From Anaerolineae bacterium (GTDB lineage Bacteria > Chloroflexota > Anaerolineae > S140-20), in assembly GCA_027021705.1 (NCBI GenBank), contig JALUTT010000028.1, positions 1 to 63,438 of the forward strand: DNA of 63,438 nt, given 5' to 3'. This document shows, piece by piece, positions 7,198-33,260 of the stretch. Position 1 is the first letter of the stretch. Every line of letters starts with the position of its first letter. The translations under genes and the position numbers were made by a program. Under the pieces are notes generated by a model. That model saw nothing but the letters and a program-made list of their open reading frames with translations, was not told where the DNA came from and did not search any database.

Positions 7198-8289
7198 ATG
7201 GAACAAGTTTCCGGCGCTGGTAACGCCTTTCGGGAAAGATCAACGCGATACACCCGCAACACAGAAATTCCGTCTTTCTTTGGGCAGCCCATGTACAAAG
7301 GCCAGTTTTTGGAAATTGACTTAGAAGCTATCACCCCTGACCATCCGGTGCTGTTCTACCGCCACCCTAACGGGGAGATATGGCTAGGGGATGCCATCGC
7401 TTGGCTGCGCTCCCTGGAATCCGAATCCGTTGACCTGGTTTTCGCCGATCCCCCCTATAACATCAAAAAAGCCGAATGGGACAGTTTTGAGTCTCAGCAA
7501 GCCTACGTCGAATGGTCTCTACAATGGATCGAACAAGCCGCCCGGGTGCTGAAGCCAAACGGAACCCTCTATGTATGCGGCTACTCCGAAATTCTGGCTG
7601 ACATCAAATTGCCGGCGATGCGCTTCTTCGCAGGATGCCGTTGGCTGGTATGGTATTACAAGAACAAAGCCAACCTGGGCAACGATTGGGGGCGCTCCCA
7701 CGAAAGCCTCCTGCACTTCCGAAAGAGCCGGGATTTCACCTTTAACCTAGACGACATCAGGATCCCTTATGGAAGGCACACTTTAAGGTATCCTGAGCAC
7801 CCTCAAGCGAGAACAAGCCAGTATGGGCAAGGACAGAAGCGAGTCTGGCATCCCCACTCCAGGGGGGCAAAGCCACGGGATGTCATTGAAGTTCCAGTCC
7901 TTAACAACGGTATGCCGGAGAAAACCCCCCATCCTACCCAAAAGCCGGAAGAGCTTCTGAGGAAAATCGTCCTGGCCTCCTCGAATCCCGGCGATCTGGT
8001 CGTTGACCCCTTTCTGGGCTCTGGAACCACGGCGGTCGTTGCAGAGCAGCTAGATCGAAAGTGGATGGGATGCGATATATCGCCGGAGTACTGCCGGTGG
8101 GCTTTTGGCGTCAACTCAACGTTCAAAAGCAACCACTTTCTGGGTTACACGGTAGCCCTCACCCGGCTAGATGGGGTGTACTATGTTGACCGTAGGCCCG
8201 TTATGGTAAAGGACCCTCGTCTAAGCCGGGAAATTCAGGACTTCCAACGATTCCTGGTCAAAGACCTTTGGAGCCTTTCGGCAAGATAG
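7198..8289 (+). CDS. Site-specific DNA methyltransferase (N4-C/N6-A, beta class)
   Basis: FADPPYN precedes HPTQKPE and DPFLGSGTT; visibly more AT-rich than its neighbours; atypical C-terminal tail. Confidence 0.9.
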
Positions 8290-8317
8290 CGAGCCTCAGG
8301 AGGACCAACGAAGCAAG

Positions 8318-12295
<3,978 letters not shown>

Positions 12296-12395
12296 GGAGA
12301 AGCCTTACAGGGTGCCCCATCCAGGCAAGAGGCGACACCTCCTCAGACCGAGCCGGGGACGGGCATGCACTTCGCAAAGAAGGAGGAAGGGAAGC

Positions 12396-12776
12396 ATGGT
12401 GTCCGCGAGCGGGAATGACCTGGCGGCCAGGCTCATGGGGGATATGGACCCCCGCCTCCTGGAGTTCCTGAAAACCAAGGTCAACTCCTTCGTCAAATGG
12501 GACCTGGTGCGGTTCTTCCATGAGAACCCACACACCACCGACACGGCTGAAAATGTGGCGCGGTACGCAGGGCGAGATCCGGCGACCATCGCCGCCGAAC
12601 TGGAAGAACTGACGGAGAACGGTGTACTAGAACGACGGCAGGTCGGGAATCTGACAGTCTACTCGCTGGCCACCGATGAGGAGATGCGCAAGCTCATCGA
12701 GCAGTTCATCCTGGCCTGCGAAGACCGCCAGTTTCGAGTCAAGGCGATCTACCACATCATCCGGGGAATGCGCTGA
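12396..12776 (+). CDS. Small winged helix-turn-helix-like protein
   Basis: AGGAGG RBS; TAENVARYAGRDPATIAAELEELTENGVL then a beta-hairpin (VYSL) pattern. Confidence 0.7.
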   Translation: MVSASGNDLAARLMGDMDPRLLEFLKTKVNSFVKWDLVRFFHENPHTTDTAENVARYAGRDPATIAAELEELTENGVLERRQVGNLTVYSLATDEEMRKLIEQFILACEDRQFRVKAIYHIIRGMR

Positions 12777-12887
12777 ATCGCCATCCTGAAAACGGTCCCA
12801 CAACCGGCGATCCGGCGGTGCACGAGCCACCCACTTCTGAATCTGGGATGAACCCTGAGACGAGCACGGAAGAGGGGAGTCCAGCCG

Positions 12888-13658
12888 ATGGAACGAATGA
12901 AGACGGGAATAGCTGGCCTGGATACGATGTTGCGAGGAGGGTTTCTGCCTCAGACGGCCAATCTAGTGGAGGGTGCACCGGGCACAGGAAAGAGCGTGTT
13001 GGGCATGCAGTTCATCTACAACGGCATTGTCCACTACGACGAACCCGGAATCATCCTGACCTTTGAGACCTTCCCCCGGCAGTACTACCGAGATGCCCTC
13101 AACTTTGGTTGGGACTTCCGGCAGTTGGAGCGGGAGAACCGCCTTCGCATCCTGATGAGCAGTCCTGAGGTCAGCAAGGCCGACCTGGAGCAACTGGGAG
13201 GAACGATCGAACAGTTGGTGGAGGAGATGGGCGCCCGCCGCATCCTGGTGGACAGCCTCTCCCACTTCGAGCGCTTGACCGATGACCCCGTCGAACTCCG
13301 CAGCTTGATCTACAGCTTCATCAACGGGCTCAAGCGCGAAGGGCTCACCGCCGTCCTGACCCGAGAGAGCCCGGCCATTCTGGGCGAAGGGCTCTTCGCC
13401 GACGAGGATGAGAACATCGCCTTCGTCGTGGACTCTTACATCCTGCTCCGCTACGTGGAGATGGACAGCACTGTATGCAGAGCACTGCTGGTGCTCAAGC
13501 TACGGGGTTCGGACCACGCCAAGGAGATCCGACGATTTGAGATCACCTCTTCCGGCATCCAGGTGTTGGACACCTTCAAAGGACGCGAGGGCATCATGAG
13601 CGGCAGTCCGCGCCGGATGCCCGAGGCCTTCATTGAAGCGTTTATCCGCCACCCATAG
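12888..13658 (+). CDS. Single-domain KaiC-like (RecA-fold, RAD55/KaiC family) ATPase
   Basis: TGIAGLDTMLRGG, Walker A GAPGTGKS, Walker B ILVDS, KLRGS arginine finger. Confidence 0.9.
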   Translation: MERMKTGIAGLDTMLRGGFLPQTANLVEGAPGTGKSVLGMQFIYNGIVHYDEPGIILTFETFPRQYYRDALNFGWDFRQLERENRLRILMSSPEVSKADLEQLGGTIEQLVEEMGARRILVDSLSHFERLTDDPVELRSLIYSFINGLKREGLTAVLTRESPAILGEGLFADEDENIAFVVDSYILLRYVEMDSTVCRALLVLKLRGSDHAKEIRRFEITSSGIQVLDTFKGREGIMSGSPRRMPEAFIEAFIRHP

Positions 13659-13705
13659 GTCCGACTGTGCTGAGCACTGGCGAGACCTGAACGACAGGTC
13701 CCATC

Positions 13706-13999
13706 ATGGCAATCCTTACCCGCCTGCTCACCGTCTACATCTGGATCGGTGTCGCCCTGCTCCTCCTGCTGCTCTTCGAGATCGCCCGCTTCTACCAGCG
13801 GACTTCAGGGCAACGCTCCTTCTACCAGGGATTTCTCATCCCCGCCCTCTGCTTTCTGCTGGCGGCGGGCCGCTACGTCCTAGTAGCCTCCGATTTTACC
13901 GGCGATGCCGTGGGGGACCTGCTCTTGTTCGGTGGAGGTGCAACCTTGATCCTCCTGGGCCACTATTTGCTCAAACTGATGACGGGAGGGCGGCCGTGA
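13706..13999 (+). CDS. Small membrane protein, about 3 TM, unknown function
   Basis: 97 aa with three hydrophobic stretches; GTGA overlap with next gene. Confidence 0.75.
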   Translation: MAILTRLLTVYIWIGVALLLLLLFEIARFYQRTSGQRSFYQGFLIPALCFLLAAGRYVLVASDFTGDAVGDLLLFGGGATLILLGHYLLKLMTGGRP

Positions 14000-14334
14000 G
14001 TGTGCTTACTGCACCGCTGAGCGCTCTGGGGCTCCTGGCCCTCACCTATATGCTCTACATCTTGGCCAGCCTCAGCCAACGTCTGGGCGCGGTCATCCGC
14101 ATGCGTCCTTACTATCGAGGCTTTTACCTTTCCATCGCGCTGACCCTCATCGCTTTCGTGGCCCACCTGATGCGGAGCAGCGTCCTGCTGGCCCCGGAAG
14201 AAGGACCTCCTCTGCTCAACAACACGATCTTCTACCTTCTGGCTTATTACCTTCCCCTCACCCTCGCTGTGACCATCAGCCTGGTCGTGGCTTGGCGTTA
14301 CTGGGGATGGCTGTTGCAAGAGCGAGACGGATAG
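13996..14334 (+). CDS. Small membrane protein, about 3 TM, unknown function
   Basis: GTG start overlapping upstream stop after GGAGG; 112 aa hydrophobic part of ORF 13633..14334. Confidence 0.75.
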   Translation: MSVLTAPLSALGLLALTYMLYILASLSQRLGAVIRMRPYYRGFYLSIALTLIAFVAHLMRSSVLLAPEEGPPLLNNTIFYLLAYYLPLTLAVTISLVVAWRYWGWLLQERDG

Positions 14335-14337
14335 CCA

Positions 14338-17300
14338 ATGGCGGGCTTCTATGCCGATCCCACCCACCCCGCTAACCCATCAGGGGAGACAACGCTCCAA
14401 GAACTGCAACAACGGATCGCCGAATTCCAGGCCCTGGATCGGGTGACCAAGACGGTCACCCGCTCTCTAGACCTGGACGAGGTGATGGAGGCAGCCCTGG
14501 ACGTGGCCCTGGACCTGCTCCGTGTCGAGGCAGGAGCCATCAGCCTGGTGGACGAACAGAAGGAGGCGCTGGTCTTCCGAGCTCAAAAGGGATGGCGACA
14601 CCAGGACTTCGTCCGTCAGGGGATCTCCGTGCCCCTCCACCACGGCCTCTCCGGCCTGGCCGTGCGCACCGGTCAGATCGTCGTCACCGGCGATGTCTCC
14701 AACGATCCCCGGGTTGCCATCCCCGCCTTTCGTGAAGAGGGCATCCAAGCCATGGCCCTGGCCCCGATGCGTGCCCGGGGACGGGTCGTGGGGGTTCTGG
14801 GCGTGATGAGCTATGAGCCCCGCACCTTCACCGAGCACGAAACAGCCATCCTCTCCAGCATCGCCGATCGCATCGGCCTGGCCATTGACAACGCCCGTCT
14901 GTACGACGAAGCGTTGGACCGAGAGCAGTTCGCCACCGCGCTGGGACGGGTTGCCCTGGCGCTGAACAGTACGCTGGAACTCCCCCGGGTGCTCGACCTC
15001 ATCTGTCGGGAGAGCATTGGCCTCTTCGACCTGGACGGTGCCTTTGTCTGGCTCGTGGAGGGGGACCGGCTGGTCGGCATCGCCGGGGAAGGACCGGGGC
15101 GGGATGCCTTCTTGGGCATGAGCCTCCCCCTCTCCGAACAGAAAGCCCTGGGCGTCCGGGTCATCCAGGAGGCCCGCCCCATCTACCTGAACGCGGTCCA
15201 GCAAATGCCCGAAGCGGAGAAGCCCGCCAACCGCTACCTCTTCGAGCTCTTCAACGTCCAGTCCATCCTGGGCGTCCCGCTACTGAAGGGCAAGCGACCG
15301 GTAGGAGCCCTGATGCTGGTGGACGCCCGCCATCCGGATCGCTTTGGGGCCCGCGACGTGGAGCGGGCCGCGCTCCTGGGCACTCAGGCAGCGCTGGCCA
15401 TCGAGAACGCCCGCCTTTACGCCCAGACCCAACGGCGGCTCCAGGAACAGTCCGCCCTGCACGAGGTAGCTGTCGCCACTCGGGGGCTTCTGAACCCCCA
15501 GGCAGTCATCGAGCGCGGGCTGGCCGCCCTCATCGCCCTCTTCGAACTCGATATGGCCGCCCTCTTCTTTATGGATCGCCAGGGCCGGCTCATCCCTCAC
15601 ACGATGCGAGGAGCCTCCCGCCGGGAGTGGGAAGCCCTGCGCCGCAAGCCGATCCCGCTACAGATGCTCCTCCTCTCCCCGCCCTCGGATCCGATTGAGG
15701 CCCACCACACCGCCGAGATCGCTGAGGACGTGGAAGCCCTCCCCCCCGAGGCATCGCCCTTGGCCCGCCAGATGGGCATGCGCACGATGGCCATCCTCCC
15801 CCTGGTGGTCAGCGGGCGCCTCCTGGGCTTCGTCAGCCTGGGAGCCCGCCGGCCGGCAGCCCTCAACCGCAAGGACATCCCCCTCCTGGAGAGCCTGAGC
15901 ACCCAACTGGCCGTCGCCATCGAAAACGCCCGCCTCTACGAGCAGATGGAACGACGCCTGGAGGAGCTCTCCTCCCTCTCCCGGGTCAGCGCCGCGCTGA
16001 ACCGGGCCTTGAGCCTGGAGGAGATCCTCACCATCGTCCTCGACGAAGCCCAGTCCCTGATCCACTACCAGACCGCTGCCATACTCCTGCGCCGGGAGGA
16101 GGACGAAACCCTCTACGTGGCCGCGGCCCGAGGGATGTCCCAGGAAGAGATCCATCGCTTTAACCAGCAACAGATCACCTGCCGTCAAGGCTGCCTCGCT
16201 CAGGTCTGGGACCGGGGAAGCTGCCTGGAGATTGACGAGGCCCACCGAGTTCCCGACGTCATCCCCCTAACCCAGACCATCCCACCCCGCCTCACCTACG
16301 TCCCTCTGCGCACGGAGGTGGGGGTCATCGGCCTGATCGTCCTGGACGACGTACCGACCAACGAGGCGACCCGGCATCTCCTCCTGAGCCTGGCCGACAT
16401 CGCCGCCGCTGCCATCCGGAAGGCCCGTCTTTACGGGGAGACAGAACGGCGGGTGGCCGAGTTGACCGCCCTGCAGGAAGTCAGCCTCCAGGTTACTTCC
16501 TCCCTGGACCTCTGGACGGTGCTGGAGACGATCACCCAATCGGCCCTGAAGCTGACCCAAGCTCAGACCGTCCAGATCTACCTCTATGATCCCCAGCGGG
16601 AGCGGCTGATCTTCGGGACGGCGATGTGGGCCGACGGTTCCCGTCGGCCCTTGGTGGGCCATCCCTCCCACGATGGCTTCATCGCCCAGGTGGCACACAC
16701 AGGCCATCCCGACTTCGTAGAAGAGGTGGCCAGGTATCCCCATCAGGACCGCCTGGAGATCGGCGAGCATCCCTTGCAGGCCCTGGCCGGCTTCCCCCTA
16801 AAGCGGGCCGACCAGGTGCTGGGCGTCCTCGCCATCGCCTATGGAGAGACCCACCGTTTCTCCGACGACGAGGTGCGGATGCTGAACCTGCTGGCCGATC
16901 AGGCCGCCATCGCGGTGGACCACGCCCGCCTCTTCGCCTTGGAGAGCCGCCGCTCCGCCCACATGGCCCTCATCAACCAGGTTGCCCGCCAGGCGACGGC
17001 CACCTTGGACCTGGGCCGGCTTCTCCAACGGGCAGCCCAGGCGATCCGCACCAACTTTGGCCGCTTCCACGTCGCCCTCTTCCTGATGGACGAGGAGCGG
17101 GATCACGTCGTACTGCGGGCGGTGGCCGGAGGCCACGCCGACCTGATCCAGCCGGGATACGAACTGCCGCTGGGCGAGGGCATCGTCGGTTGGGTCGCCC
17201 AGCAGGGAGAGACCCTGGTCATCAACGACGTGGAGCAGGACCCCCGCTACCAGCCCTTCTCCCCAGAGCAGAAAGCGGTCTGCTCGGAGATGGCCGTGCC

Positions 17301-19686
17301 CCTCAAGCTGGCCGGCCAGGTGATCGGCGTGCTGGATGTCCAGGACCTGGAGCCCGGCGCCTTCGATAAGGACCACGTGCGGGCCCTAGAGACGCTGGCC
17401 GATCAACTGGCCGTTGCCATAGACAATGCCCGCCTCTACGAAGAGGTGCGTCGCCGCCTAACCGAACTGAGTGCCCTGCAGGAGGTCACCCTGCAGATCA
17501 CCGCCTCGCTAGACGTGCACACCGTCCTAGACACCATCGTCCGCCACGGTCTGAGCATCACCAAGGCGGACAACGTCCACATCTACCTATATGATGAGAC
17601 CCAAGGTCGGTTCACCATCGGCACCGCCCTCTGGCAAGATGGACGGCGCACGCCGGCGGTGAAGGCGCCCCGCCCCCACGGGTTGACGAGCACCGTGCAG
17701 CGGACCGGCCGCCCCCTCATCATCAACGACGCCCCCAGCCACCCCCTCTTCCAAGACGGGAAGGCGATCCAGTGGGAACTCCACGCCATCGCCGGGTTCC
17801 CCCTGCGCCACGGTCACCAGGTCCTGGGGGTCTTCACGGCCGCCTACCGTCGGCCCCACCGCTTCAGCGAGCACGAGATCCGCCTCTTCACCCTTCTGGC
17901 CGACCAGGCGGCCATCGCCATCGCCAACGCTCGCCTCTTCCAGGAGACCCAGCGCCGCCTGGAGGAGGTCACCCTGCTCCACCGGGTCGCTCTGGCCGCT
18001 ACCTCTGCGCCCGACTTCAACACCCTGGTCTCTCAGGTCGTGGAGGCCCTGCGGCGTACCCTGGATGCCGACTACATTGACTTGCTGCTCCTGGATTCTG
18101 AGCAAGAGATGCTCGTCTTCCACCCCTCGCTGAAGGGGGAAACCACCCGGGGGGAGATCCATCAGATCGCCCGGATCCCTCTAGGGCAAGGCATCACCGG
18201 AACGGTCGCTCAGACCGGCGAACCGCTCCGGGTGAACGACGTTCGCCACGACCCCCGCTACCTGGAACTCTACGAAGATGTCCGGTCTGAGCTATGCGTT
18301 CCCCTCCAGGTGGGCGACCAGGTGATCGGCGTCATCAACCTGGAGAGCACCCGCCCCAACGCTTTCTCCCTCGATGACGAGCGGTTGATGGTCACGGTGG
18401 CCCGTCAGTTGGCAGTTATTATGGAAAATACTCGCCTACATCAAGAGACCCGGCGCCGGCTGGCCGAAGTGACCACCCTCTACAAGTTCGCCCAGCAGCT
18501 CAGCCGCAGTCTGGAGATGGATGAAGTCCTGGAGACCATCGTCTCCTCTCTCAAGGAAGTGCTGGGCTGTCGGGGGGTCTCCATCGCCCTGCTAGACCCG
18601 GAGACGGAGGTCCTGGAGATCCGGGCGGCAGCCGGCCTCCAGGAACGATGGAAGCGGGAAGCACGGCTGAAGGTGGGCGAGGGCGTGATGGGACAGGTGG
18701 CCATCACCGCCACACCGATGTACGTCGCCGATACCTACACCTACGAGGGGTTCATCTTTTTCGACAAGGCCGTCCGCTCCCTGATGGTTGTCCCCCTGCT
18801 GGTCAAGGACCGCGTCATCGGGACCCTCTCGGTGGACCACGCAGTCCCCAACGCCTTCACCGAGGACGATGAGCGGCTGTTGACCATCGCCGCTGCTCAG
18901 GCGGCCATCGCCATCGAGAACGCCCGCCTCGTCCAGGGGCTCCGGGAGCGGGCTGCGGCGCTGGCCAAAGCCTACGAAGAGCTCAAAGAGTTGGACCGGA
19001 TGAAGGATGAGTTAATCCAGAACGTCTCCCACGAGCTGCGGACTCCCCTCACCTTCGTCAAAGGATACGTGGAACTGCTGCTGGCCGGAGATATGGGTCC
19101 CCTGAACGAAGAGCAGATAAAGAGTCTGCGCATCGTGGCCGACAAGACCAACACCGTCACCCGGCTCGTGGGTGACATCGTGCTGCTCCAGCAGATCGAG
19201 CGCGAACAGATGGAACTGGTCCCCATCTCCATCGTCAGCATCGCGCGCCGGGCCATCGCCGGCAGCCAGGCCACCGCCGTCCGCCAGGGGGTTCGGATCG
19301 AACTGGAGGCTCCACCCGACCTGCCCCCGGCCTTAGGAGATGAAGGGAGACTGGAGCAGGTTTTCGATAACCTGTTGGGAAACGCTATCAAGTTCAGCCC
19401 CGATGGGGGTGAAGTGCGCGTGACGCTGAAAGAGACAGAGGACGCCATCCTAGTTCAGGTCTCCGACGAAGGGATCGGCATCCCCGCCGACAAGCTGGAG
19501 CGGATCTTCGACCGCTTCTACCAGGTGGATGGTTCTTCCACCCGACGGTTCGGCGGCACCGGTTTGGGGCTGGCCATCGTCAAACGGATCGTTGAGGCCC
19601 ACGGGGGGCGCGTTTGGGTCACCAGCCAGGAAGGGGAGGGGAGCACCTTCTACTTCACAGTTCCCAAAGCCGAAGCGAAGGCCTGA
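14338..19686 (+). CDS. Cytoplasmic sensor histidine kinase with nine tandem GAF domains
   Basis: Nine AIENARL-type linker helices; SHELRTPL H-box, [22 protein letters not shown]; no TM segment. Confidence 0.93.
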
Positions 19687-19808
19687 GAGGAGGGAGCGGA
19701 GAAGCAGCGTCTTAGCGAACGAGCGAGAGGTGGACGCGGACTCGTCCCCTGGCCCGCTCACCATCTTACCCAATCGGACCCATTCGGCCCATTGAAGGGG
19801 GGAGATTC

Positions 19809-20894
19809 GTGGCGCGAAGAGAACGGTTCAATCGGCAAGCTCGCGTGAACTTGCGACAGGAACTCTATGCCTTACCCAAAGTAGACCTACACCGACACCT
19901 GGAAGGGAGCCTGCGCCTAAAGACCCTGGCCGAAATCGCCCAGGAACATGGGCTGGACCTGCCCAGCTACGACATCGAGCAGTTACGCCCCTACGTCCAG
20001 GTCACCAACGACCCACCCGACTTCCACCGCTTTCTGGAGAAATTCCGGCTGCTACGCCGCTTCTACACGACACCGGAAGCAGTGAAGCGGGTGGCCTACG
20101 AGGCAGTGGCCGATGCTGCCGAGGACAATGTCCGCTACCTGGAACTCCGGCTGAATCCCGAGGCCCTGGCCGAGGCCCGTCGCTTCTCCCTGAGCGACGT
20201 GGCCGATTGGGTGATCGAAGCGGTCCACCAGGCCCAGGCCGACTACGACATCCAGGTCCGGCTCATCGCCATGATCCGCCGAGACAAAAGCCTGGAGAAC
20301 GCCTGGGAGATCGCCCGACTGGCCATCGAACGCAGAGATGATGGATTCGTGGGTCTGGACCTGGCCGGCGACGAGGTGAACTATCCGGCCACCCCCTTCA
20401 TCTCCGTCTTCCAGGCTGCTAAGGAAGCCGGCTTGGGGATCACCATCCACGCTGGCGAGCACGGAAGCGCTGAAAACGTGCGCGAAGCCATCTGCGAGAT
20501 GGGCGCGGACCGCATCGGCCACGGCGTCCGTTCCATCGAAAACCACCAGGTGATCCAGCTGCTCCGGGAACACAAGACCGTCCTGGAAGTCTGCCCTACC
20601 AGCAACCTCCAGACCGGCGTGATGCACAGCTTCGCCCACCACCCTCTGCGCGACCTCTACTACTTGGGAGTCCGGGCTACCATCAACACCGATGACCCCA
20701 GCGTCTCCGACACAACCCTGACCGACGAATACTTGGTAGCCGTGATGGGCATCGGCATAGCCATCCCCGACATCAAGCAGATGATCCTCTATGCCGCCGA
20801 AGGAGCCTTTCTCCCCCCTGACGAAAAAGCCGCCCTCATCGCCCGCCTACGCCAGGAGATGGGCATAGAAGTGCAGGTAGGGACTGAAGGGTAG
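19809..20894 (+). CDS. add: Adenosine deaminase family amidohydrolase
   Basis: DLHRHLEGS, GLDLAGDE, HAGE, RIGHG, CPTSN, NTDDP; substrate cannot be determined by eye; start GTG 19809 or 19845. Confidence 0.88.
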   Translation: MARRERFNRQARVNLRQELYALPKVDLHRHLEGSLRLKTLAEIAQEHGLDLPSYDIEQLRPYVQVTNDPPDFHRFLEKFRLLRRFYTTPEAVKRVAYEAVADAAEDNVRYLELRLNPEALAEARRFSLSDVADWVIEAVHQAQADYDIQVRLIAMIRRDKSLENAWEIARLAIERRDDGFVGLDLAGDEVNYPATPFISVFQAAKEAGLGITIHAGEHGSAENVREAICEMGADRIGHGVRSIENHQVIQLLREHKTVLEVCPTSNLQTGVMHSFAHHPLRDLYYLGVRATINTDDPSVSDTTLTDEYLVAVMGIGIAIPDIKQMILYAAEGAFLPPDEKAALIARLRQEMGIEVQVGTEG

Positions 20895-20968
20895 GGCACC
20901 GACCGCGAAGCCGCCGCTAGGCCGCTAACCGGCCGGCCGATAAATCACCAATCCACGGGAGGTTGATA

Positions 20969-21844
20969 ATGGAACAACCCGATCTGACGGAACACTTTCT
21001 GGAGTTGGTCCGCCGCACCTCCACCGACCTGCGCTCCGACGTCGAAGAAGCGCTGCGGCGCGCCCGTGACCAGGAAGAGCCCGGTTCGGCAGCCCGAGCT
21101 GCCTTGGACACCATCCTCAAGAACATCGAACTGGCCCGCCAAAAGTCCACCCCCATCTGTCAGGACACCGGTACCCCTATCTTCTACGTCTACTACCCCA
21201 CCGGCTGGTCCACCCTCAAGCTGAGGCAGCAGATCCGCCAGGCCGTGGCCGAAGCCACCCGGCGGGCCTACCTGCGCCCCAACGCCGTGGACAGCCTGAC
21301 GGGCCGGAACACCGGCGACAACCTCGGCGACGCCTTCCCCTACATCCACTTCGAGGAGTGGGAGGAGGACTACCTGAAGGTGGACCTGATGCTCAAAGGG
21401 GGCGGCTGCGAGAACGTGGGGGCCCAGTACAAGCTGCCCGACACCCGGCTCAAAGCCGACCGAGACCTGGAGGGGGTGCGCAAAGTCGTCCTCGACGCCG
21501 TCCACAAGGCCCAGGGGAAGGGATGTGCCCCCGGCATCATCGGTGTGGCCATTGGCGGTGACCGGACGACCAGCTACATCCGCTCCAAGGAGCAGTTCTT
21601 CCGCCCCCTGGACGACGAAAACCCCAACCCCGATCTGGCCGCGATGGAGAAGCGGCTGACGGAGCAGGCCAACAGCCTGGGGATCGGCCCGATGGGCTTC
21701 GGGGGCCGAACGACGGTGCTGGGCATCAAGGTGAGCGCACTGCACCGGCTGCCTGCCTCCTACTTCGTCACCGCCAGCTACATGTGCTGGGCCGACCGCC
21801 GGCGCACCCTCACCTACCGCGACGGCCAGGTCGAGATCCGCTGA
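20969..21844 (+). CDS. Class I Fe-S fumarate/tartrate hydratase, alpha subunit
   Basis: PICQDTG, KGGGCEN, GCAPG, HRLPAS motifs. Confidence 0.9.
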   Translation: MEQPDLTEHFLELVRRTSTDLRSDVEEALRRARDQEEPGSAARAALDTILKNIELARQKSTPICQDTGTPIFYVYYPTGWSTLKLRQQIRQAVAEATRRAYLRPNAVDSLTGRNTGDNLGDAFPYIHFEEWEEDYLKVDLMLKGGGCENVGAQYKLPDTRLKADRDLEGVRKVVLDAVHKAQGKGCAPGIIGVAIGGDRTTSYIRSKEQFFRPLDDENPNPDLAAMEKRLTEQANSLGIGPMGFGGRTTVLGIKVSALHRLPASYFVTASYMCWADRRRTLTYRDGQVEIR

Positions 21845-21853
21845 TGCCGGGGC

Positions 21854-21946
21854 CCCTCCCGCAGGTTGCCCCCACGGCCCGAAGCGTGTCACCGATGGCC
21901 TCCGCTAGCCATTGCCGCCATCAAGCTCGCGTGACCTGCAGGAGGG
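21854..21946 (+). repeat. Inverted-repeat-bounded element, copy 1 (subfamily A)
   Basis: CCCTCCCGCAGGTT ... GTGACCTGCAGGAGGG; interior resembles copy 3. Confidence 0.85.
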
Positions 21947-21974
21947 CGACCACGCCGATCACAGGAGGAAGAAG

Positions 21975-22601
21975 ATGGCCACCTATCACCTGAACATCCC
22001 CATCTCCGACGAGGAGATCCTGAAGCTGCACGCGGGCGATACCGTCTACCTGAACGGCGTGATGGTGACGGCCCGTGACGCGGCCCACAAGTACATAATG
22101 GAAAACTTCATCAAGACCGGCGGCAACCCTCCTGAGTCCGAAGCTGCGTTGTACGAAGAACTGAAGCGGCTGCTGCGCGGTGGCGTCCTCTACCATTGCG
22201 GCCCCGTCGTGCGTCAGGACGAGGCGGGGAAATGGCACTTCGTCGCCGCCGGCCCCACCACCAGCATCCGTGAGGAGCCCTACGAGGCCGACGTCATCGC
22301 CCACTTCGGCCTCAAGGGGGTGATAGGCAAGGGGGGGATGGGACCGAGGACCCTGGCCGCCTGCCAGGAGCACAAAGCGGTCTACTTCCACGCCGTGGGT
22401 GGGGCCGCCACCCTCATCGCCGACGCCGTCAAGGAGGTGCTGGCCGTCTACAAGAAAGAGGAGTTCGGCGTCCCCGAAGCCTTCTGGGTGATCCGCGTCG
22501 AGGAGTTCCCCGTCGTCGTCACGATGGACGCCCACGGGGAATCCATCCACGCCGTGGTGGAGGAGCAATCCAAAGAGAAGCTGGCCGCGCTGATCGCCTG
22601 A
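21975..22601 (+). CDS. Class I Fe-S fumarate/tartrate hydratase, beta subunit
   Basis: TARDAAH, YHCGPV, AGPTTSIRE, GKGGM, MDAHG; AGGAGG RBS. Confidence 0.9.
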   Translation: MATYHLNIPISDEEILKLHAGDTVYLNGVMVTARDAAHKYIMENFIKTGGNPPESEAALYEELKRLLRGGVLYHCGPVVRQDEAGKWHFVAAGPTTSIREEPYEADVIAHFGLKGVIGKGGMGPRTLAACQEHKAVYFHAVGGAATLIADAVKEVLAVYKKEEFGVPEAFWVIRVEEFPVVVTMDAHGESIHAVVEEQSKEKLAALIA

Positions 22602-22610
22602 GAGGGAGGG

Positions 22611-23015
22611 ATGCCTGCATCGGACCGGCCTCCCAAGACGGCGGCCGACCTCACGCCCGAGGAGATCGAAGCCTACCGCCGGGCCGCCCAAGAGCGCCGA
22701 GCGGCGCGGGAGCGGGCCATCGAAGCCCGGCGGCAGCGAGCCTGGAACGTGGCCCACGCCTCGGCGCAGCTCCTCAAGACACGCTTCGGAGCCCGCCGGG
22801 TGTGGGCCTTTGGCTCCCTGCTGCGCCGGGGGTTCGATCTGGACTCCGACGTGGACCTGATGGTCGAGGGGCTATCGCCGGCCCTGCTCGGCCAGGCCCT
22901 GGAGGCCGTCCAGGAGCTGGACCCCGAGATCGGCGTGGACCTGCTACGCTGGGAGGAGACGACCCTCCCCGCCAGCCTGCGCCGCCGCGTCGAGCGGGAG
23001 GGGGTGGAGCTGTAG
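22611..23015 (+). CDS. Minimal nucleotidyltransferase (MntA-like antitoxin)
   Basis: GS-X10-DXD motif (FGSLLRRGFDLDSDVDL). Confidence 0.85.
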   Translation: MPASDRPPKTAADLTPEEIEAYRRAAQERRAARERAIEARRQRAWNVAHASAQLLKTRFGARRVWAFGSLLRRGFDLDSDVDLMVEGLSPALLGQALEAVQELDPEIGVDLLRWEETTLPASLRRRVEREGVEL

Positions 23016-23256
23016 GGCCGACGGCCGACCGAGGGAGAGGCACTGAGGGGGAAGGCACCGAGGGGGGAGGCACCGAGGACTGAGGACTGAGGACTTCAGA
23101 ACCGACCGCCGACCGCCGACCGCCGACCGAGGGAGAGGCACCGAGGGGGGAGGCACCGAGGACTGAGGACTTCAGAACCGACCGCCGACCGCCGACCAAC
23201 GGCCGACCACCCGACTACTCGACCACTTGACCACCCGACCAAGCGACCACCCGACC
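23016..23256 (+). repeat. Mosaic tandem array (GAGGCACC, GGACTGA, CCGACCG, CGACCAC units) with an internal block duplication
   Basis: The block GAGGCACCGAGGACTGA...GGACTTCAGAACCGACCGCCGACC occurs twice. Confidence 0.9.
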
Positions 23257-23274
23257 AGAGCTAGGGAGGAACCC

Positions 23275-23760
23275 GTGGGACGCGAAGAATGGCTGCGCCT
23301 GGCCCTCTTCATCCGGGATGAACTGGGGGAGATCGAGAAGCTGCTGCACCGGGTCGAGCGTTTTCTGACGCTGGGCCTCCAGAGCGGCGAGGACGCCTAC
23401 TGGGATGCCATCGCGCTGAACCTGCACGGATTCTACAGCGGCGTCGAGCGCATCCTGGTGGAGATCGCCCGCGAGATGGATGAAGCCCTCCCCACCGGGC
23501 CGGACTGGCATCGGGCCTTGCTGCGCCAGATGGCCTGGGAAGTCCCCTCCCGCCGCCCGGCCGTCCTACAGCGCCCCACCCGGGAGTGCCTGGACGAGTA
23601 CCGGCGCTTTCGCCACCTGGTGCGCAACGTCTACACCTTCACCTTCGACCGCGCCCGCCTGCGAGAGCTGGCCGAGGCCCTACCCCGGTGCTACGAAGCC
23701 GTCCGCCAGGACCTACTCGCCTTCGCCCACTTCTTGGAGTCGCTATCCCCCCCTCCGTAA
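23275..23760 (+). CDS. HEPN domain (HepT-like) toxin
   Basis: LHGFYSGVERI, WHRALL..MA, RRFRHLVRNVY; GGAGG RBS before GTG 23275; adjacent to an MNT. Confidence 0.85.
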   Translation: MGREEWLRLALFIRDELGEIEKLLHRVERFLTLGLQSGEDAYWDAIALNLHGFYSGVERILVEIAREMDEALPTGPDWHRALLRQMAWEVPSRRPAVLQRPTRECLDEYRRFRHLVRNVYTFTFDRARLRELAEALPRCYEAVRQDLLAFAHFLESLSPPP

Positions 23761-25223
23761 CGGGCCACCATCCCTAACAACACCCCCACCCACAGGTGCA
23801 CGTTGTTCACGTAGAGGTTGTCGAAGAGGTGGTGGACGCTGAAGGCGGTGAAGCCGGCCAGCAGCCCCAGGGCCAGCCCCCGCTGCCAGCCGGCCGCCCG
23901 TTGACCCCACCGCCAGGTGAACCAGAAAACCGCCCCCCACAGGACCAGGTAAGCCACCAGCCCCAGAAAGCCCGCCTCGGCCGCCACGTTCAGGTAGTAG
24001 TTGTGAGCGTGGCCCAGCGGGATGGGCCAGTTGAGGAGCCGATAGCGGGGATAGGCCGGCTCGTAATCCCCAAACCCCACCCCTGTCCAGAAGTGGTCCT
24101 GCCACATCGCCAGCGCCGCCTGCCAGTGGGCCAGCCGCTCGATCACCGCGTAGTTGGCATCGTTGATCCCCACCCCCCGCACATCCTGCAAGCGCAGGTA
24201 GGTGGGGATGTCGGCCAGCCGGCCGGCGATGGGCGCCGGCAGCAACCCCGCCCCGGCGAGCCCCCCGACGAGCAGCAAGAGGGCCAGGACCAGCCCGGCC
24301 CCCATCCAGCGCCGTCGAGGCAGGGCGAAGAGCATCGCCAACATCCCCGCCCCGAAGCCCAGCCAGGCCCCCCGCGACCAAGAGGCGACCAGCCCCCCCA
24401 CCATCAGGAGGGCGGGCAAGAGGCTCAGGAAGCCCGGCAGGAGGGGGTTGCGCCAGGAGAACCGTGGGGCCAGGCCAGACCGAAGACCTCTCCCCGCCTC
24501 GAACAGACCGGCCCGGACGGCCTCGGCCAGGAGACCCAAAGCCAGGGGAGCCACCAGCCCCAGGAAGCCCGCGTAGGGGTTGGGCTGCTCAAAGGTGCCG
24601 TAGGCCCGGTAGAAGCGGCCCGGCACGATGGCGAAGTGGTCAGGCCCTGTGCCCCGCAGCCCGAACTGCCAGAGCCCTACCGCCGCCTGAACGCTGCCGA
24701 TGACCAGCAGGCCGGCCACCATCCAAGGCAACCGCCGCTCTCCCATCCAATCGGCGACGAAGAGGAAGAGCGCCACGATCTGGAGCCACTTGACCAGCTC
24801 CGGCAGCCCGTAGACGGGCAACTCCGTCGCCCCCCAGAGGGAGAGCCAGGCCACGCCGACGAAGAGGAGCAGCGGGAAGAGCAACGGCGGCGCCGGGAGG
24901 TGGATCCGACGGCGGGCCGCCCCCCGGGCCAGCCAGGCCGCCAGCGTCAGGGCCAGGACGGGCTGGGCGATCTGGGCAGGGACCGAAGGGACGTTGGCCC
25001 GCAGGTAGGCCCAGAGAGGCCCCAGGAAGAGCGCGGCCAGCAGCCCCACCAGCGGCTCGATGAGGGTGCCCACGCCGACGAAGGCGAAGAAGACCAGCAG
25101 GCCGGCGTTCAACAGCGAGAGGCGGACCAAGGCCAGGCCGGAGAGCGCCGCCAGGCCGGCCACGCCCAGCCGGAAGCCGGGAGCCCCCCAGGAGAAAGCA
25201 CGACCCAAGCGTCCGATGCCCAC
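23691..25223 (-). CDS. O-antigen ligase (Wzy_C) family membrane protein
   Basis: RAYGTFEQPNPYAG, SWSRGAWLG, GVGFG, HAHNYYL..AAE.G. Confidence 0.85.
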   Translation of the reverse strand: MGIGRLGRAFSWGAPGFRLGVAGLAALSGLALVRLSLLNAGLLVFFAFVGVGTLIEPLVGLLAALFLGPLWAYLRANVPSVPAQIAQPVLALTLAAWLARGAARRRIHLPAPPLLFPLLLFVGVAWLSLWGATELPVYGLPELVKWLQIVALFLFVADWMGERRLPWMVAGLLVIGSVQAAVGLWQFGLRGTGPDHFAIVPGRFYRAYGTFEQPNPYAGFLGLVAPLALGLLAEAVRAGLFEAGRGLRSGLAPRFSWRNPLLPGFLSLLPALLMVGGLVASWSRGAWLGFGAGMLAMLFALPRRRWMGAGLVLALLLLVGGLAGAGLLPAPIAGRLADIPTYLRLQDVRGVGINDANYAVIERLAHWQAALAMWQDHFWTGVGFGDYEPAYPRYRLLNWPIPLGHAHNYYLNVAAEAGFLGLVAYLVLWGAVFWFTWRWGQRAAGWQRGLALGLLAGFTAFSVHHLFDNLYVNNVHLWVGVLLGMVARYGGGDSDSKKWAKASRSWRTAS

Positions 25224-25244
25224 CGAACCTCGCCCTCGCTCCCC

Positions 25245-27710
25245 TTACCCCTTGGCCTCCTCCACCAGCACCCGCCGCAGCACCTTGCCCACGAAGCTCT
25301 TGGGCAATTCGTCCCGGAACTCGATCTCCCAGGGGACCTGCCACTCGGCCAGGCGGGCGCGACAGAGGCCCAGCAGCTCCTCGGCCGTCACCCGGCTCCC
25401 TTCCCGAGGCACCACGTAGGCCTTCACCCGCTGGCCGGCCGGCGTCGCCGGGACGCCCACCACCGCCACCTCCTTGACTTCAGGGTGCTCGTAGAGCACT
25501 TCCTCCACGTCGCGGGGATAGACCTGATACTCCCCGGCCAGGATCATATCCTTCTTGCGGCTGATGATCTGAAAGTAGCCATCGTCGTCCATCCGGGCCA
25601 CGTCGCCGGTGAAGAGCCACCCATCCCGCACCACCTGGGCCGTCGCCTCCGGGTCCTGCCAGTAGCCCGCCATCACCTGCGGCCCCCGCACGACCAGTTC
25701 ACCGATCTGGCCCGGCGGCAGGTCCTCCCCCGTCGCCAGGTCCACCACCTTGGCCTCGGTGCCCGGCAGCGGAATCCCGATGGAGCCCACCTTGCGCAGC
25801 CCGTGAAGGGGGTTGGCGTGGGTCACCGGGCTGGCCTCCGTCAACCCGTACCCCTCCACCAGCCGGCCCCGGGTCAGCTTCTCAAAGGCCTCCTGGACCT
25901 CGACAGGCAGCGGGGCCGCCCCGCTGATGCAGGCCCGGATGGACTGGATGCCGTACTTGCGCACGCCGGGGAAGTTGTTGATGGCCACGTACATCGTCGG
26001 CACGCCGGGGAAGATGGTGGGGCGGTACCGGCGGATCGCCTTCAACACCTCCTCCGTGCGGAAGGTGGGCAGGAGAACCAGCGTGGCCCCCAGGCTGATG
26101 GGCACGTTGAGGGCCGTCGTCATCCCGTAGGAGTGGGAGAAGGGGAGCACGGAGAGGAAAACCTCCCGCCCCTCCCGCAGGTCGGGGATCCAGTGGCGGA
26201 CCTGGAGGGCGTTGGCCACCAGGTTGCGGTGGCTGAGCATCACCCCCTTGGGCAGGTCCGTCGTGCCGCCCGTGTAGATGATGACCGCCACATCCTCCAG
26301 GTCAACGGCCTCCTCGGGAGGGACAGGGGAATGGTCCATCAGCCAGTCCTGCCAGAGGATGACGCCCTCCGGCTGTGCACCCCGGATCCGGTGACCCTCT
26401 TGGGCCTCCCGCGTCCAGGTGAAGAGCCAACGCCGGTGGGGGGGCAGATAGCGCTTCACGTTGGTCAGGACCACCCGCTCGACACCCGTCTCCGCCAGCG
26501 CCTGTCGGGCCAGCTCCTGGTAGCGCGTCAGCGTGACCAGCACCTTCGCGTCGGCATCCCGAAGCTGGGCGAGCAGTTCTTGGGGTTCGGAGAGGGGGCT
26601 GGCGAAGACGACCGTCGCCCCGGCCCGCAGCGTGCCGAAGTAGGCGATCACCGTCTGGGGCAGGTTGGGGAGCAAGAGCATCACCCGCTCCCCGGGGCGG
26701 ACCCCCAGGGCCCGCAACCCCTGAGCGAAGCGGCTGGCCAATCGGTCCAGCGTCCGGTAGCGCATTGTGCCGCCGCCGTAGCGCAGGGCCGGTCGGCGCG
26801 GGAAACGGCGGGCGGAACTGCTCAGGAAGCGGTCCAGCGGGCGTCGGGTCAACCCCACCGTGAAGGGCACGCCCTCATCGTAGAAGCGGAGCCAGGGGCG
26901 CTGACGCACCCACTGCCGCCGCCGTTCGTCGTCCCGCCAGGAGCGCGTCCCCTCCCCCAGGAAGCGCTCGATGGCCCGGTTGACGGCATCGGGCCGTTCC
27001 AGGAGCACCAGGTGAGCGGAGACGCCCACGTTGACCGCCTGGGCGTTGGGCAAAGCGCGGGGCACCTCCTCGTAGACGGCGCGGGGGAAGACCCGATCCC
27101 GGTGGCCCATGATGACCAGCGTCGGCGTGCGGATGTCGCGGAAGAGGGACCAGCCGTTCCAGCGCTTGAGGGTGTTGTGGTAGAAGCGCTTCAGGAGGTC
27201 GGGGGGAGCGCCCAGCCAGGGGCGGGTGTACCGCTCCAGGAGGCGGAGGAAGGGGCCGGGGAGGGAGAAGGCCCAGCGGTAGGCCGGCGACAGAGGGTAC
27301 TCCCCCGCCGAAGCGATGAGGATCAGCTTCTCCACCTGATCGGGATGGCGGGCCGTGTACTCGGCGACGATGGCCCCGCCGAAGGAGTGACCCGCCAGCA
27401 CGAAAGGGGGGTCCACGTCCAGTTGGTCCAGGACCGCCTCCAGGTCGGCCAGGAACTCGTCCATCGTGTAGGCGCTGGCCGGGCGGTCCGACCGGCCGTG
27501 GCCCCGCAGGTCCAGGGCCACCGTCCGGTTCACATCCGAGAAGGCCCAGAGTTGGTAGCGCCACTGGGCAGCCCACCCTCCGAAGCCGTGGACGAAGACC
27601 ATCGTGCGGCGGGCCGCCTCGGGCTCCACGTCAATCACGCTGAGCCAGACGGGCGGCCGCTCTGAGACCCGCACCCGCCGCCGATAGAGCTCTAGGTCTA
27701 CCTGCTGCAT
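25245..27710 (-). CDS. Alpha/beta hydrolase fused to long-chain fatty acid-CoA ligase
   Basis: N-half VHGFGG, GHSFGG, AHLVLLE; C-half YTGGTTDLPKG, EGYGLTE, TGDVA, GKVLRR. Confidence 0.9.
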   Translation of the reverse strand: MQQVDLELYRRRVRVSERPPVWLSVIDVEPEAARRTMVFVHGFGGWAAQWRYQLWAFSDVNRTVALDLRGHGRSDRPASAYTMDEFLADLEAVLDQLDVDPPFVLAGHSFGGAIVAEYTARHPDQVEKLILIASAGEYPLSPAYRWAFSLPGPFLRLLERYTRPWLGAPPDLLKRFYHNTLKRWNGWSLFRDIRTPTLVIMGHRDRVFPRAVYEEVPRALPNAQAVNVGVSAHLVLLERPDAVNRAIERFLGEGTRSWRDDERRRQWVRQRPWLRFYDEGVPFTVGLTRRPLDRFLSSSARRFPRRPALRYGGGTMRYRTLDRLASRFAQGLRALGVRPGERVMLLLPNLPQTVIAYFGTLRAGATVVFASPLSEPQELLAQLRDADAKVLVTLTRYQELARQALAETGVERVVLTNVKRYLPPHRRWLFTWTREAQEGHRIRGAQPEGVILWQDWLMDHSPVPPEEAVDLEDVAVIIYTGGTTDLPKGVMLSHRNLVANALQVRHWIPDLREGREVFLSVLPFSHSYGMTTALNVPISLGATLVLLPTFRTEEVLKAIRRYRPTIFPGVPTMYVAINNFPGVRKYGIQSIRACISGAAPLPVEVQEAFEKLTRGRLVEGYGLTEASPVTHANPLHGLRKVGSIGIPLPGTEAKVVDLATGEDLPPGQIGELVVRGPQVMAGYWQDPEATAQVVRDGWLFTGDVARMDDDGYFQIISRKKDMILAGEYQVYPRDVEEVLYEHPEVKEVAVVGVPATPAGQRVKAYVVPREGSRVTAEELLGLCRARLAEWQVPWEIEFRDELPKSFVGKVLRRVLVEEAKG

Positions 27711-33207: not shown

Positions 33208-33260
33208 GTCATCTCTCCCAGGAGCACACACATGCCCAGTTCACCGCCCCCCCAAGTCCC

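Follow-up and report, generated by a model that had tools for sequence, protein, structure and literature searches.

The window analysed here is a contig of 63,438 nucleotides (JALUTT010000028.1, forward strand) from an Anaerolineae bacterium of the phylum Chloroflexota (assembly GCA_027021705.1). Between secA and the adenosine deaminase gene add (product hereafter referred to as ADA), it carries genes for a winged helix-turn-helix protein (wHTH), a single-domain KaiC-like ATPase, two small membrane proteins (hereafter referred to as TM1 and TM2) and a multi-GAF histidine kinase. We propose, as a reading that stands about an even chance of being correct, that the functional unit would be the four-gene wHTH-KaiC-TM1-TM2 cassette, in which KaiC would act as the switch and the wHTH protein as the output, enclosed by the housekeeping genes secA and add. 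An earlier interpretation of the letters and open reading frames (ORFs) of the window (the sequence-only reading) had taken the genes from wHTH to ADA as one six-gene signalling system. The wHTH-KaiC-TM1-TM2 part of that system stood as a conserved unit, whereas the kinase, present in only 26 of 80 related loci, and ADA, an ordinary neighbour, did not.

Gene content of the locus

The genes of the block and its two borders are as follows.

8318..12295, plus strand: secA, 1325 amino acids, with SecA_DEAD, P-loop_SecA, SecA_SW, SecA_PP_bind and SEC-C domains; upstream bookend
12396..12776, plus strand: wHTH gene, 126 amino acids, winged-helix protein with a predicted ArsR/SmtB-like fold, unnamed family
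12888..13658, plus strand: KaiC-like gene, 256 amino acids, single-domain P-loop ATPase (PF06745)
13706..13999, plus strand: TM1 gene, 97 amino acids, three hydrophobic segments, motif ARFY(E/Q)xTSGQ
13996..14334, plus strand: TM2 gene, 112 amino acids, TM1 paralogue, motif LSRRLGxV and tail AWRYWGWLL
14338..19686, plus strand: kinase gene, 1782 amino acids, predicted soluble 9-GAF histidine kinase, optional member of the block
19809..20894, plus strand: ADA gene (add), 361 amino acids, predicted canonical adenosine deaminase, downstream bookend

These coordinates agree with the six co-directional genes, separated by gaps of 111, 47, -4, 3 and 122 bp, of the sequence-only reading. Its statements that the cluster lacks a response regulator and KaiA/KaiB were also upheld, as no Response_reg domain is encoded within positions 12396-20894 and PF07689 and PF07688 had no match in the host genome (94.9% complete). 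The nearest Response_reg domain is that of a hybrid kinase of 835 amino acids (REC-GAF-PAS) encoded on the opposite, minus strand at positions 30724-33231, 10 kb downstream of the block. Literature searches combining KaiC with Anaerolineae, with wHTH proteins, or with deaminases and GAF kinases returned no description of the cluster, in line with the earlier view of it as a candidate undescribed system.

Conservation of gene order in Anaerolineae

Gene order was compared over 80 loci from a wHTH-seeded scan, with one genome per species and wHTH orthologues 59-79% identical; the loci were labelled Thermoflexales, Anaerolineales, Aggregatilineales, Ardenticatenia, Thermoflexus and Phototrophicaceae. 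The complete order secA-wHTH-KaiC-TM1-TM2-kinase-ADA was found in 24 loci, and the same order without the kinase in 30. Thirteen loci had the minimal form wHTH-TM1-TM2-ADA, lacking both KaiC and kinase (secA upstream in 11), and another 13 had truncated or variant orders. Over the whole set, secA lay upstream in 78 loci, and KaiC was present in 66, TM1 in 75, TM2 in 77, the kinase in 26 and ADA in 68. The genes are closely packed, with median gaps of 75 nucleotides from secA to wHTH, 41 from wHTH to KaiC, 16 from KaiC to TM1 and -4 from TM1 to TM2; the kinase is followed by ADA at a median distance of 35 nucleotides (24 loci), and TM2 is followed directly by ADA at a median of 62 nucleotides (44 loci). 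The wHTH to TM1 gap was 6-54 nucleotides in the 13 loci with the minimal form. The arrangement recurs in dozens of other genomes, far beyond chance; a failure of the homologues to co-occur elsewhere, by which the sequence-only reading would have been refuted, was thus not observed.

The conserved block ends sharply at secA and ADA, because the other genes of the window are not conserved in the 80 loci: of 13 further genes (six upstream and seven downstream), 12 had no match at any of the loci, and the remaining gene, encoding a glycosyltransferase, had a match at a single locus. A second sample consisted of 41 relatives from the same class, with a threshold of E ≤ 1e-20 for wHTH matches. Both wHTH and TM2 were present in all 16 relatives with a wHTH match and neither was found in the other 25; in those 16 genomes, TM2 occurred as one copy, at the same locus as wHTH. 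One locus on a 5.2-Mb scaffold (L055, positions 10385-12313) has a KaiC gene split into two overlapping ORFs, followed by an ORF of 114 amino acids and then by a Cys/His-rich ORF of 136 amino acids that appeared HNH-like by eye; TM1, TM2 and ADA were not found at this locus.

The wHTH protein

The wHTH protein had only weak, sub-threshold winged-helix matches in Pfam and NCBIfam; the ArsR model NF033788, for example, scored 17.9 bits, below its cut-off of 55. Comparison of the family profile with the PDB gave as best match 3r0a, a putative regulator from Methanosarcina mazei (E 1.2e-6), followed by ArsR proteins. An AlphaFold2 model (predicted local distance difference test score, pLDDT, 86.5) displayed a winged-helix fold with flanking helices, and its top Foldseek matches were CadC, CzrA and SmtB (E 2.4e-4 to 1.5e-3, target-normalised TM-score 0.55-0.71). 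The protein is thus modelled with an ArsR/SmtB-type winged-helix fold. The wHTH family comprises 1895 clusters; among the 120 matches listed, all names are “hypothetical” or generic regulator labels, and the organism names given are from Anaerolineae. DUF7342 and HVO_A0114 were considered as links to haloarchaeal families and rejected, their scores being below the cut-off. Paralogous wHTH-KaiC gene pairs, overlapping by 4 nucleotides and not accompanied by TM genes, occur at two other loci in relatives (L028 and L029).

The KaiC-like ATPase

The KaiC-like protein matched PF06745 over residues 4-228 with 179.2 bits (cut-off 26.6). Its best match in the PDB was KaiC chain 8zn5_B, with which it aligned at both the CI and the CII domain (E 5.4e-78 for the two stretches combined), and its Walker A (GAPGTGKS), Walker B (VDSLS) and catalytic-glutamate (LTFE) motifs align with those of KaiC. 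In a MAFFT alignment of the window protein with 65 orthologues, these motifs were at least 95% conserved (two paralogues were excluded from the count). In the alignment with CII, the stretch “hISTitdt” pairs with “nIAFvvds”, such that the “IST” positions read A-F in the window protein and AF, TF, PF or SF in orthologues; these positions include the Ser/Thr autophosphorylation pair of KaiC (S431/T432). The protein is thus a KaiC homologue of one domain, in which the motifs for nucleotide binding and catalysis are intact but the CII phosphorylation pair is absent.

Scores fell below the cut-offs of the more specific models compared. For clock KaiC, they were 169.3 bits against 546.25 (TIGR02655) and 213.6 against 408 (NF006799); for the archaeal KaiC-domain models, 131.8 against 249.45 (TIGR03880), 114.7 against 307.25 (TIGR03877) and 93.1 against 247.8 (TIGR03881); and for the ArlH/FlaH archaellum ATPase, 42.9 against 215 (NF052589) and 49.6 against 194 (NF004723).

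Trees of ADA sequences were estimated with FastTree, in one case with paralogues as the outgroup. Thirteen rows without KaiC (12 of the 80 loci, together with locus L030 of genome G031) formed one clade on the ADA tree, with a support value of 98, and this clade was nested among KaiC-bearing rows with support of 88-91, below the 95% mark. A single loss of KaiC may be somewhat more likely than a single gain on this tree. The host genome also contains a second single-domain KaiC-like gene (L146, positions 2004-2774, on contig C113), the product of which is an orthologue of the L028 paralogue (59% identity). Upstream of this gene are a SurA/PpiC-like gene and two ORFs assigned to no family, and rsmI is next to it.

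The TM1/TM2 membrane pair

TM1 and TM2 each have three hydrophobic segments, as judged by eye, with 16 and 18 Kyte-Doolittle windows of 19 residues above 1.6, respectively; neither had a valid family assignment in Pfam or NCBIfam. Residues W13, A27, F29, Y30 and M92 are invariant in an alignment of 37 TM1 orthologues. Most of the invariant residues of the two proteins are located either in loop 1, which is basic and contains ARFY (TM1) or LSRRLGxV (TM2), or in the tails at the C-terminus (LMTG.R, AWRYWGWLL); by the positive-inside rule, we read loop 1 and the tails as cytoplasmic. Comparison of TM1 with TM2 by hhalign gave a probability of 85.5% and an E value of 5.7e-6 over 71 columns; the two proteins are paralogues.

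In the window, the TM2 start codon (GTGA) overlaps the TM1 stop codon, and the same 4-nucleotide overlap of the two genes was found in 44 of the 75 loci holding both. The TM2 family has 254 representatives in a collection of 1.84 billion proteins, nearly all of them 100-115 amino acids long, and three natural single-chain TM1-TM2 fusions of 215-220 amino acids were identified (P0212, P0247 and P0253). TM1 and TM2 therefore probably act as one membrane unit, because they appear to be translationally coupled and are, in rare cases, fused. An ESM Atlas search with TM2 retrieved unnamed Chloroflexota clusters only. A link between TM2 and DUF7536 (PF24380) was rejected, as the score was 17.5 bits against a cut-off of 27 and only one of 37 orthologues matched.

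A model of the fusion, built from an alignment in which the first half was covered by three sequences only, had a pLDDT of 80.8 and six long helices. Its best VIA-align score, with a designed helical barrel, was Z 9.2, below the noise level that the tool states for helical bundles. Prediction of a complex of TM1 and TM2 with wHTH as the partner gave a score of 0.00 (mark 0.32); this returns no verdict and is evidence in neither direction.

The multi-GAF histidine kinase

Nine GAF stretches were identified in the kinase, together with HisKA (PF00512, 51.9 bits) and HATPase_c (PF02518, 127.7 bits) domains and an H-box, “SHELRTP”, at residue 1565. The absence of a transmembrane segment, noted by the sequence-only reading, was corroborated: the most hydrophobic window (1.96, at residue 394) lies inside a GAF region and is not read as membrane-spanning. 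A regular-expression scan of the kinase for NKFDE, a signature of GAF domains that bind cyclic nucleotides, was negative, and even the dipeptide “NK” was absent; this is weak evidence, since the ligands of GAF domains are diverse. The kinase has 1782 amino acids here and 790-1591 in the loci of 10 relatives, and its distribution on the ADA tree requires at least three changes (8-9 by parsimony). It appears to be an optional, separable member of the block.

The adenosine deaminase and its linkage to secA

ADA matched A_deaminase with 315 bits and the equivalog model TIGR01430 with 317.3 bits, above the cut-off of 216.55. Its best PDB matches were 6n9m and 6n91, both bacterial adenosine deaminases, with alignments spanning the whole protein (E 1e-66), and its HRHLEG, HAGE and NTDDP stretches, presumably the zinc-ligand and catalytic motifs, align with those of 6n9m. 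It is the sole PF00962 match in the host genome. Similarity to the ATP deaminase Cad1 (E 2e-27) was far weaker than that to housekeeping Add, the model NF041744 for RdrB, the ATP deaminase of RADAR, gave 17.3 bits against a cut-off of 800, and the PADLOC CARF_ADA profile was matched over positions 250-601 of 605 only, so the 361-residue ADA has no CARF part. Other substrates are known for some enzymes of this COG. As far as sequence can tell, ADA is an ordinary housekeeping adenosine deaminase of purine salvage, outside the signalling chemistry. The view of this protein as a signalling enzyme was thus undercut by its TIGR01430 match and its status as the only A_deaminase protein of the genome.

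Among the 41 relatives, 13 had TM2 and ADA, three had TM2 but no ADA that could be found, seven had ADA only and 18 had neither. The three cassette-bearing genomes in which ADA was not found are G005 (93% complete), G015 (99%) and G020 (95%). Of the 12 loci in the set of 80 without ADA, six end within 700 nucleotides of the last gene and six continue for at least 1.7 kb with no ADA. In two genomes (G024 and G038), an ADA orthologue (59% and 50% identity, respectively) directly follows secA with no cassette in between. In genome G016, secA is followed by a PAS/GAF kinase and ADA, the wHTH, KaiC and TM genes being absent, and in G246 the interval from secA to ADA holds a distant wHTH homologue and nothing else of the cassette. 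On the ADA tree with the paralogue outgroup, cassette-less genomes fall among the cassette-bearing ones. The linkage of secA and add is therefore independent of the cassette, because the two genes adjoin without it in G024 and G038, and the cassette is likewise independent of ADA, because it is kept where no ADA was found. In G016 (L134, positions 13000-14200), tandem repeats of about 1.2 kb separate secA from the kinase gene, and several of their frames repeat the same peptide.

The proposal that the deaminase supplies a ligand for the GAF array was not sustained, given a canonical ADA that is the only one in the genome, that stands beside secA without the cassette and that was not found in the cassette-bearing G015 and G020. 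The deaminase link had itself been described as the weakest part of the sequence-only reading. The adjacency is in fact very constant (68 of 80 loci) and is explained by an older linkage of secA with add, but it does not indicate shared function. More generally, this case illustrates that even tight conservation of a neighbouring gene may reflect history, the gene being a bookend rather than a component.

Comparison with known systems

Single-domain KaiC-like ATPases are widespread, and those of archaea were reportedly proposed as signal-transduction hubs by Makarova, Galperin and Koonin in 2017. The cassette resembles these archaeal systems in that its one-domain KaiC is encoded next to membrane proteins and small putative regulators, KaiA and KaiB being absent, and its best single-domain NCBIfam matches are the archaeal models TIGR03880, TIGR03877 and TIGR03881. 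It differs from them in being bacterial, in scoring under the cut-off of every archaeal model, and in having partners (wHTH, TM1 and TM2) that lie outside any Pfam family; similarity to the archaeal PH0186/PH0284 was also lower (E 4e-26, against 5e-78 for the cyanobacterial CI/CII domains). With cyanobacterial KaiC, the window protein shares the domain fold, Walker A, Walker B and the catalytic glutamate, and its C-terminal “F..REGIMSGSPRR” aligns with the end of CII. It has one domain (256 amino acids) rather than two, however, the “IST” positions are replaced, and no KaiA or KaiB was found.

The predicted fold of wHTH is shared with the ArsR/SmtB repressors CadC, CzrA and SmtB, from which the protein differs in its sub-threshold sequence similarity and in an extra, highly conserved C-terminal helix (DDRQFRVKAIYHIIRGMR). 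ADA is like the bacterial Add proteins 6n9m and 6n91 in its full-length alignment, its HxH, HAGE and NTDDP motifs and its score above the TIGR01430 cut-off; the one notable distinction is that its place behind secA or the cassette is conserved.

We know of no single-domain KaiC-like ATPase, outside the clock and the archaellum, with a defined partner set or mechanism. The ATPase described here appears to have a fixed partner set, consisting of one winged-helix protein and one membrane heteromer. The existence of a natural clade without KaiC and of natural fusions of the membrane pair would make the cassette a compact, testable system for a non-clock bacterial KaiC. The analysis also names three protein families (wHTH, TM1 and TM2) that have no annotation at present.

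A functional parallel comes from Haloferax volcanii, in which CsmR, a 13-kDa winged-helix regulator, and the KaiC-like CirA share a regulon (PMC13286277). Post-translational control of CsmR is proposed there, and csmR is reported to adjoin archaellin genes, not cirA (PMC13286277). The likeness is one of function: in both cases, a winged-helix regulator of small size would work together with a KaiC-like protein. The difference is that no membrane pair is involved in H. volcanii.

Proposed mechanism and alternative explanations

Under the four-gene reading, the TM1/TM2 pair would be a membrane anchor or sensor, with loop 1 and the tails as cytoplasmic docking sites, and a KaiC-type ring would switch by ATP binding and hydrolysis. 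The wHTH protein would be the output, its access to DNA being granted or denied by the switch, with its own operon as the probable target, and the soluble multi-GAF kinase would be an extra, separable input kept at the locus in this lineage. A more specific version, which we consider doubtful, would make the cassette the equivalent, in bacteria, of the KaiC hubs of archaea, with a membrane-docked, non-clock KaiC ring gating an ArsR-fold factor and, given the secA-add context, possibly coupling export or purine status to expression. If true, this would be a new route from membrane to transcription without a two-component phosphorelay.

Several observations weigh against the four-gene reading. 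KaiC is missing from 13 of the 80 loci, which keep wHTH, TM1 and TM2, so the ATPase would be dispensable for the role of the other three proteins, and the second KaiC-like gene of the host genome has no wHTH neighbour. Distant wHTH homologues (27-42% identity) stand alone elsewhere in the phylum, in unrelated contexts beside recX-recA, auxiliary genes of ATP-binding cassette transporters, queG or cvpA. The fusion model resembled only generic helical bundles among known folds (best Foldseek E 0.15). Both of its halves look N-out/C-in, yet the linker between them is short and modelled with low confidence, and the same-orientation topology inferred for the separate TM1 and TM2 proteins is hard to reconcile with so short a linker. 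Finally, secA-add adjacency is conserved in the same way, although we know of no functional tie between these two genes, and gene order alone is weak evidence in Anaerolineae. The last point is also the argument for the view that the block is frozen synteny only, with unrelated functions. We regard this view as quite improbable, because it would leave unexplained the co-occurrence of wHTH and TM2 (16 of 16 relatives with wHTH, against none of 25 without), the 4-nucleotide TM1/TM2 overlap in 44 of 75 loci, the TM1-TM2 fusions, the paralogous wHTH-KaiC pairs at other loci in other genomes, and the fact that no gene order is conserved past the block.

That all six genes form one system is very improbable. 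In such a system, the input would come from the membrane pair, KaiC would serve as switch and wHTH as output, and the GAF domains of the kinase would read an adenine-nucleotide ligand produced or removed by the deaminase. The tight kinase-ADA gap (median 35 nucleotides in 24 loci), the kinase-ADA adjacency in G016 without the rest of the cassette and the presence of ADA after the cluster in 68 of 80 loci are what such a system would predict. Nevertheless, 54 of the 80 loci lack the kinase, with at least three changes (8-9 by parsimony) on the ADA tree; ADA scores above the equivalog cut-off, is the sole member of its family in the genome and is far nearer to housekeeping Add than to Cad1 or RdrB; it was not found in two near-complete cassette genomes (G015 and G020); secA-ADA adjacency exists without the cassette; and the NKFDE signature is unmatched in the kinase, a weak point. 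The minimal wHTH-TM1-TM2-ADA form of 13 loci, with its short wHTH-TM1 gaps (6-54 nucleotides), and the median TM2-ADA gap of 62 nucleotides in 44 loci would also fit a purine-nucleoside operon, in which an ArsR-type repressor would be joined to ADA and to a heteromeric permease of 3+3 segments formed by TM1 and TM2, with KaiC and the kinase as later additions; paired or fused small membrane proteins are a common transporter design. This is improbable, as the cassette persists in G015 and G020, where no ADA was found, the invariant residues are mostly in loop 1 and the tails rather than in the membrane helices, and wHTH identity of 59-79% over 80 loci is unusually high for a local repressor. 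A Sec-associated module, in which TM1 and TM2 (with wHTH and KaiC) would assist or monitor SecA-dependent export, would account for the position of secA, which in 78 of the 80 loci immediately precedes the wHTH gene on the same strand (median gap 75 nucleotides), and perhaps for the unusual length of SecA (1325 amino acids). It is unlikely: the cassette is present in only 16 of the 41 relatives, although secA is an essential gene; secA is equally linked to add, so that the adjacency may be historical; and neither an ArsR-type winged helix nor a KaiC ATPase is known to have a role at the translocon. The four-gene cassette is accordingly the reading that we retain, at the even chance given above.

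Other features of the region

The genes downstream of ADA encode fumarase subunits and unrelated proteins. An Rfam scan of positions 8000-23000 (E ≤ 0.1) gave zero matches, promoter and terminator counts over positions 12000-21500 were not above those for shuffled sequence, and an inverted-repeat search of two intergenic regions yielded no convincing candidate. PADLOC gave domain-level matches only, and the cluster did not correspond to a known defence system.

The SecA_DEAD match covers residues 7-423 for a profile of 290 positions, implying large insertions in the 1325-residue SecA. Just upstream of secA, on the plus strand, is a DNA methylase gene (positions 7198-8289; N6_N4_Mtase, 182 bits), the GC content of which at third codon positions is 0.61, against 0.76-0.90 for its neighbours; this gene may have been acquired horizontally. 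A plus-strand ORF of 1289 amino acids (positions 23796-27665), with no Pfam match at E ≤ 1e-4, is located where the GC content of the region is highest (0.70-0.715). It is preceded on the same strand by a gene for a HepT-like_2 toxin-type protein (positions 23227-23760, 125 bits), itself preceded by an ORF of 134 amino acids (positions 22611-23015, plus strand), and these two genes may constitute a HepT/MntA-type pair.

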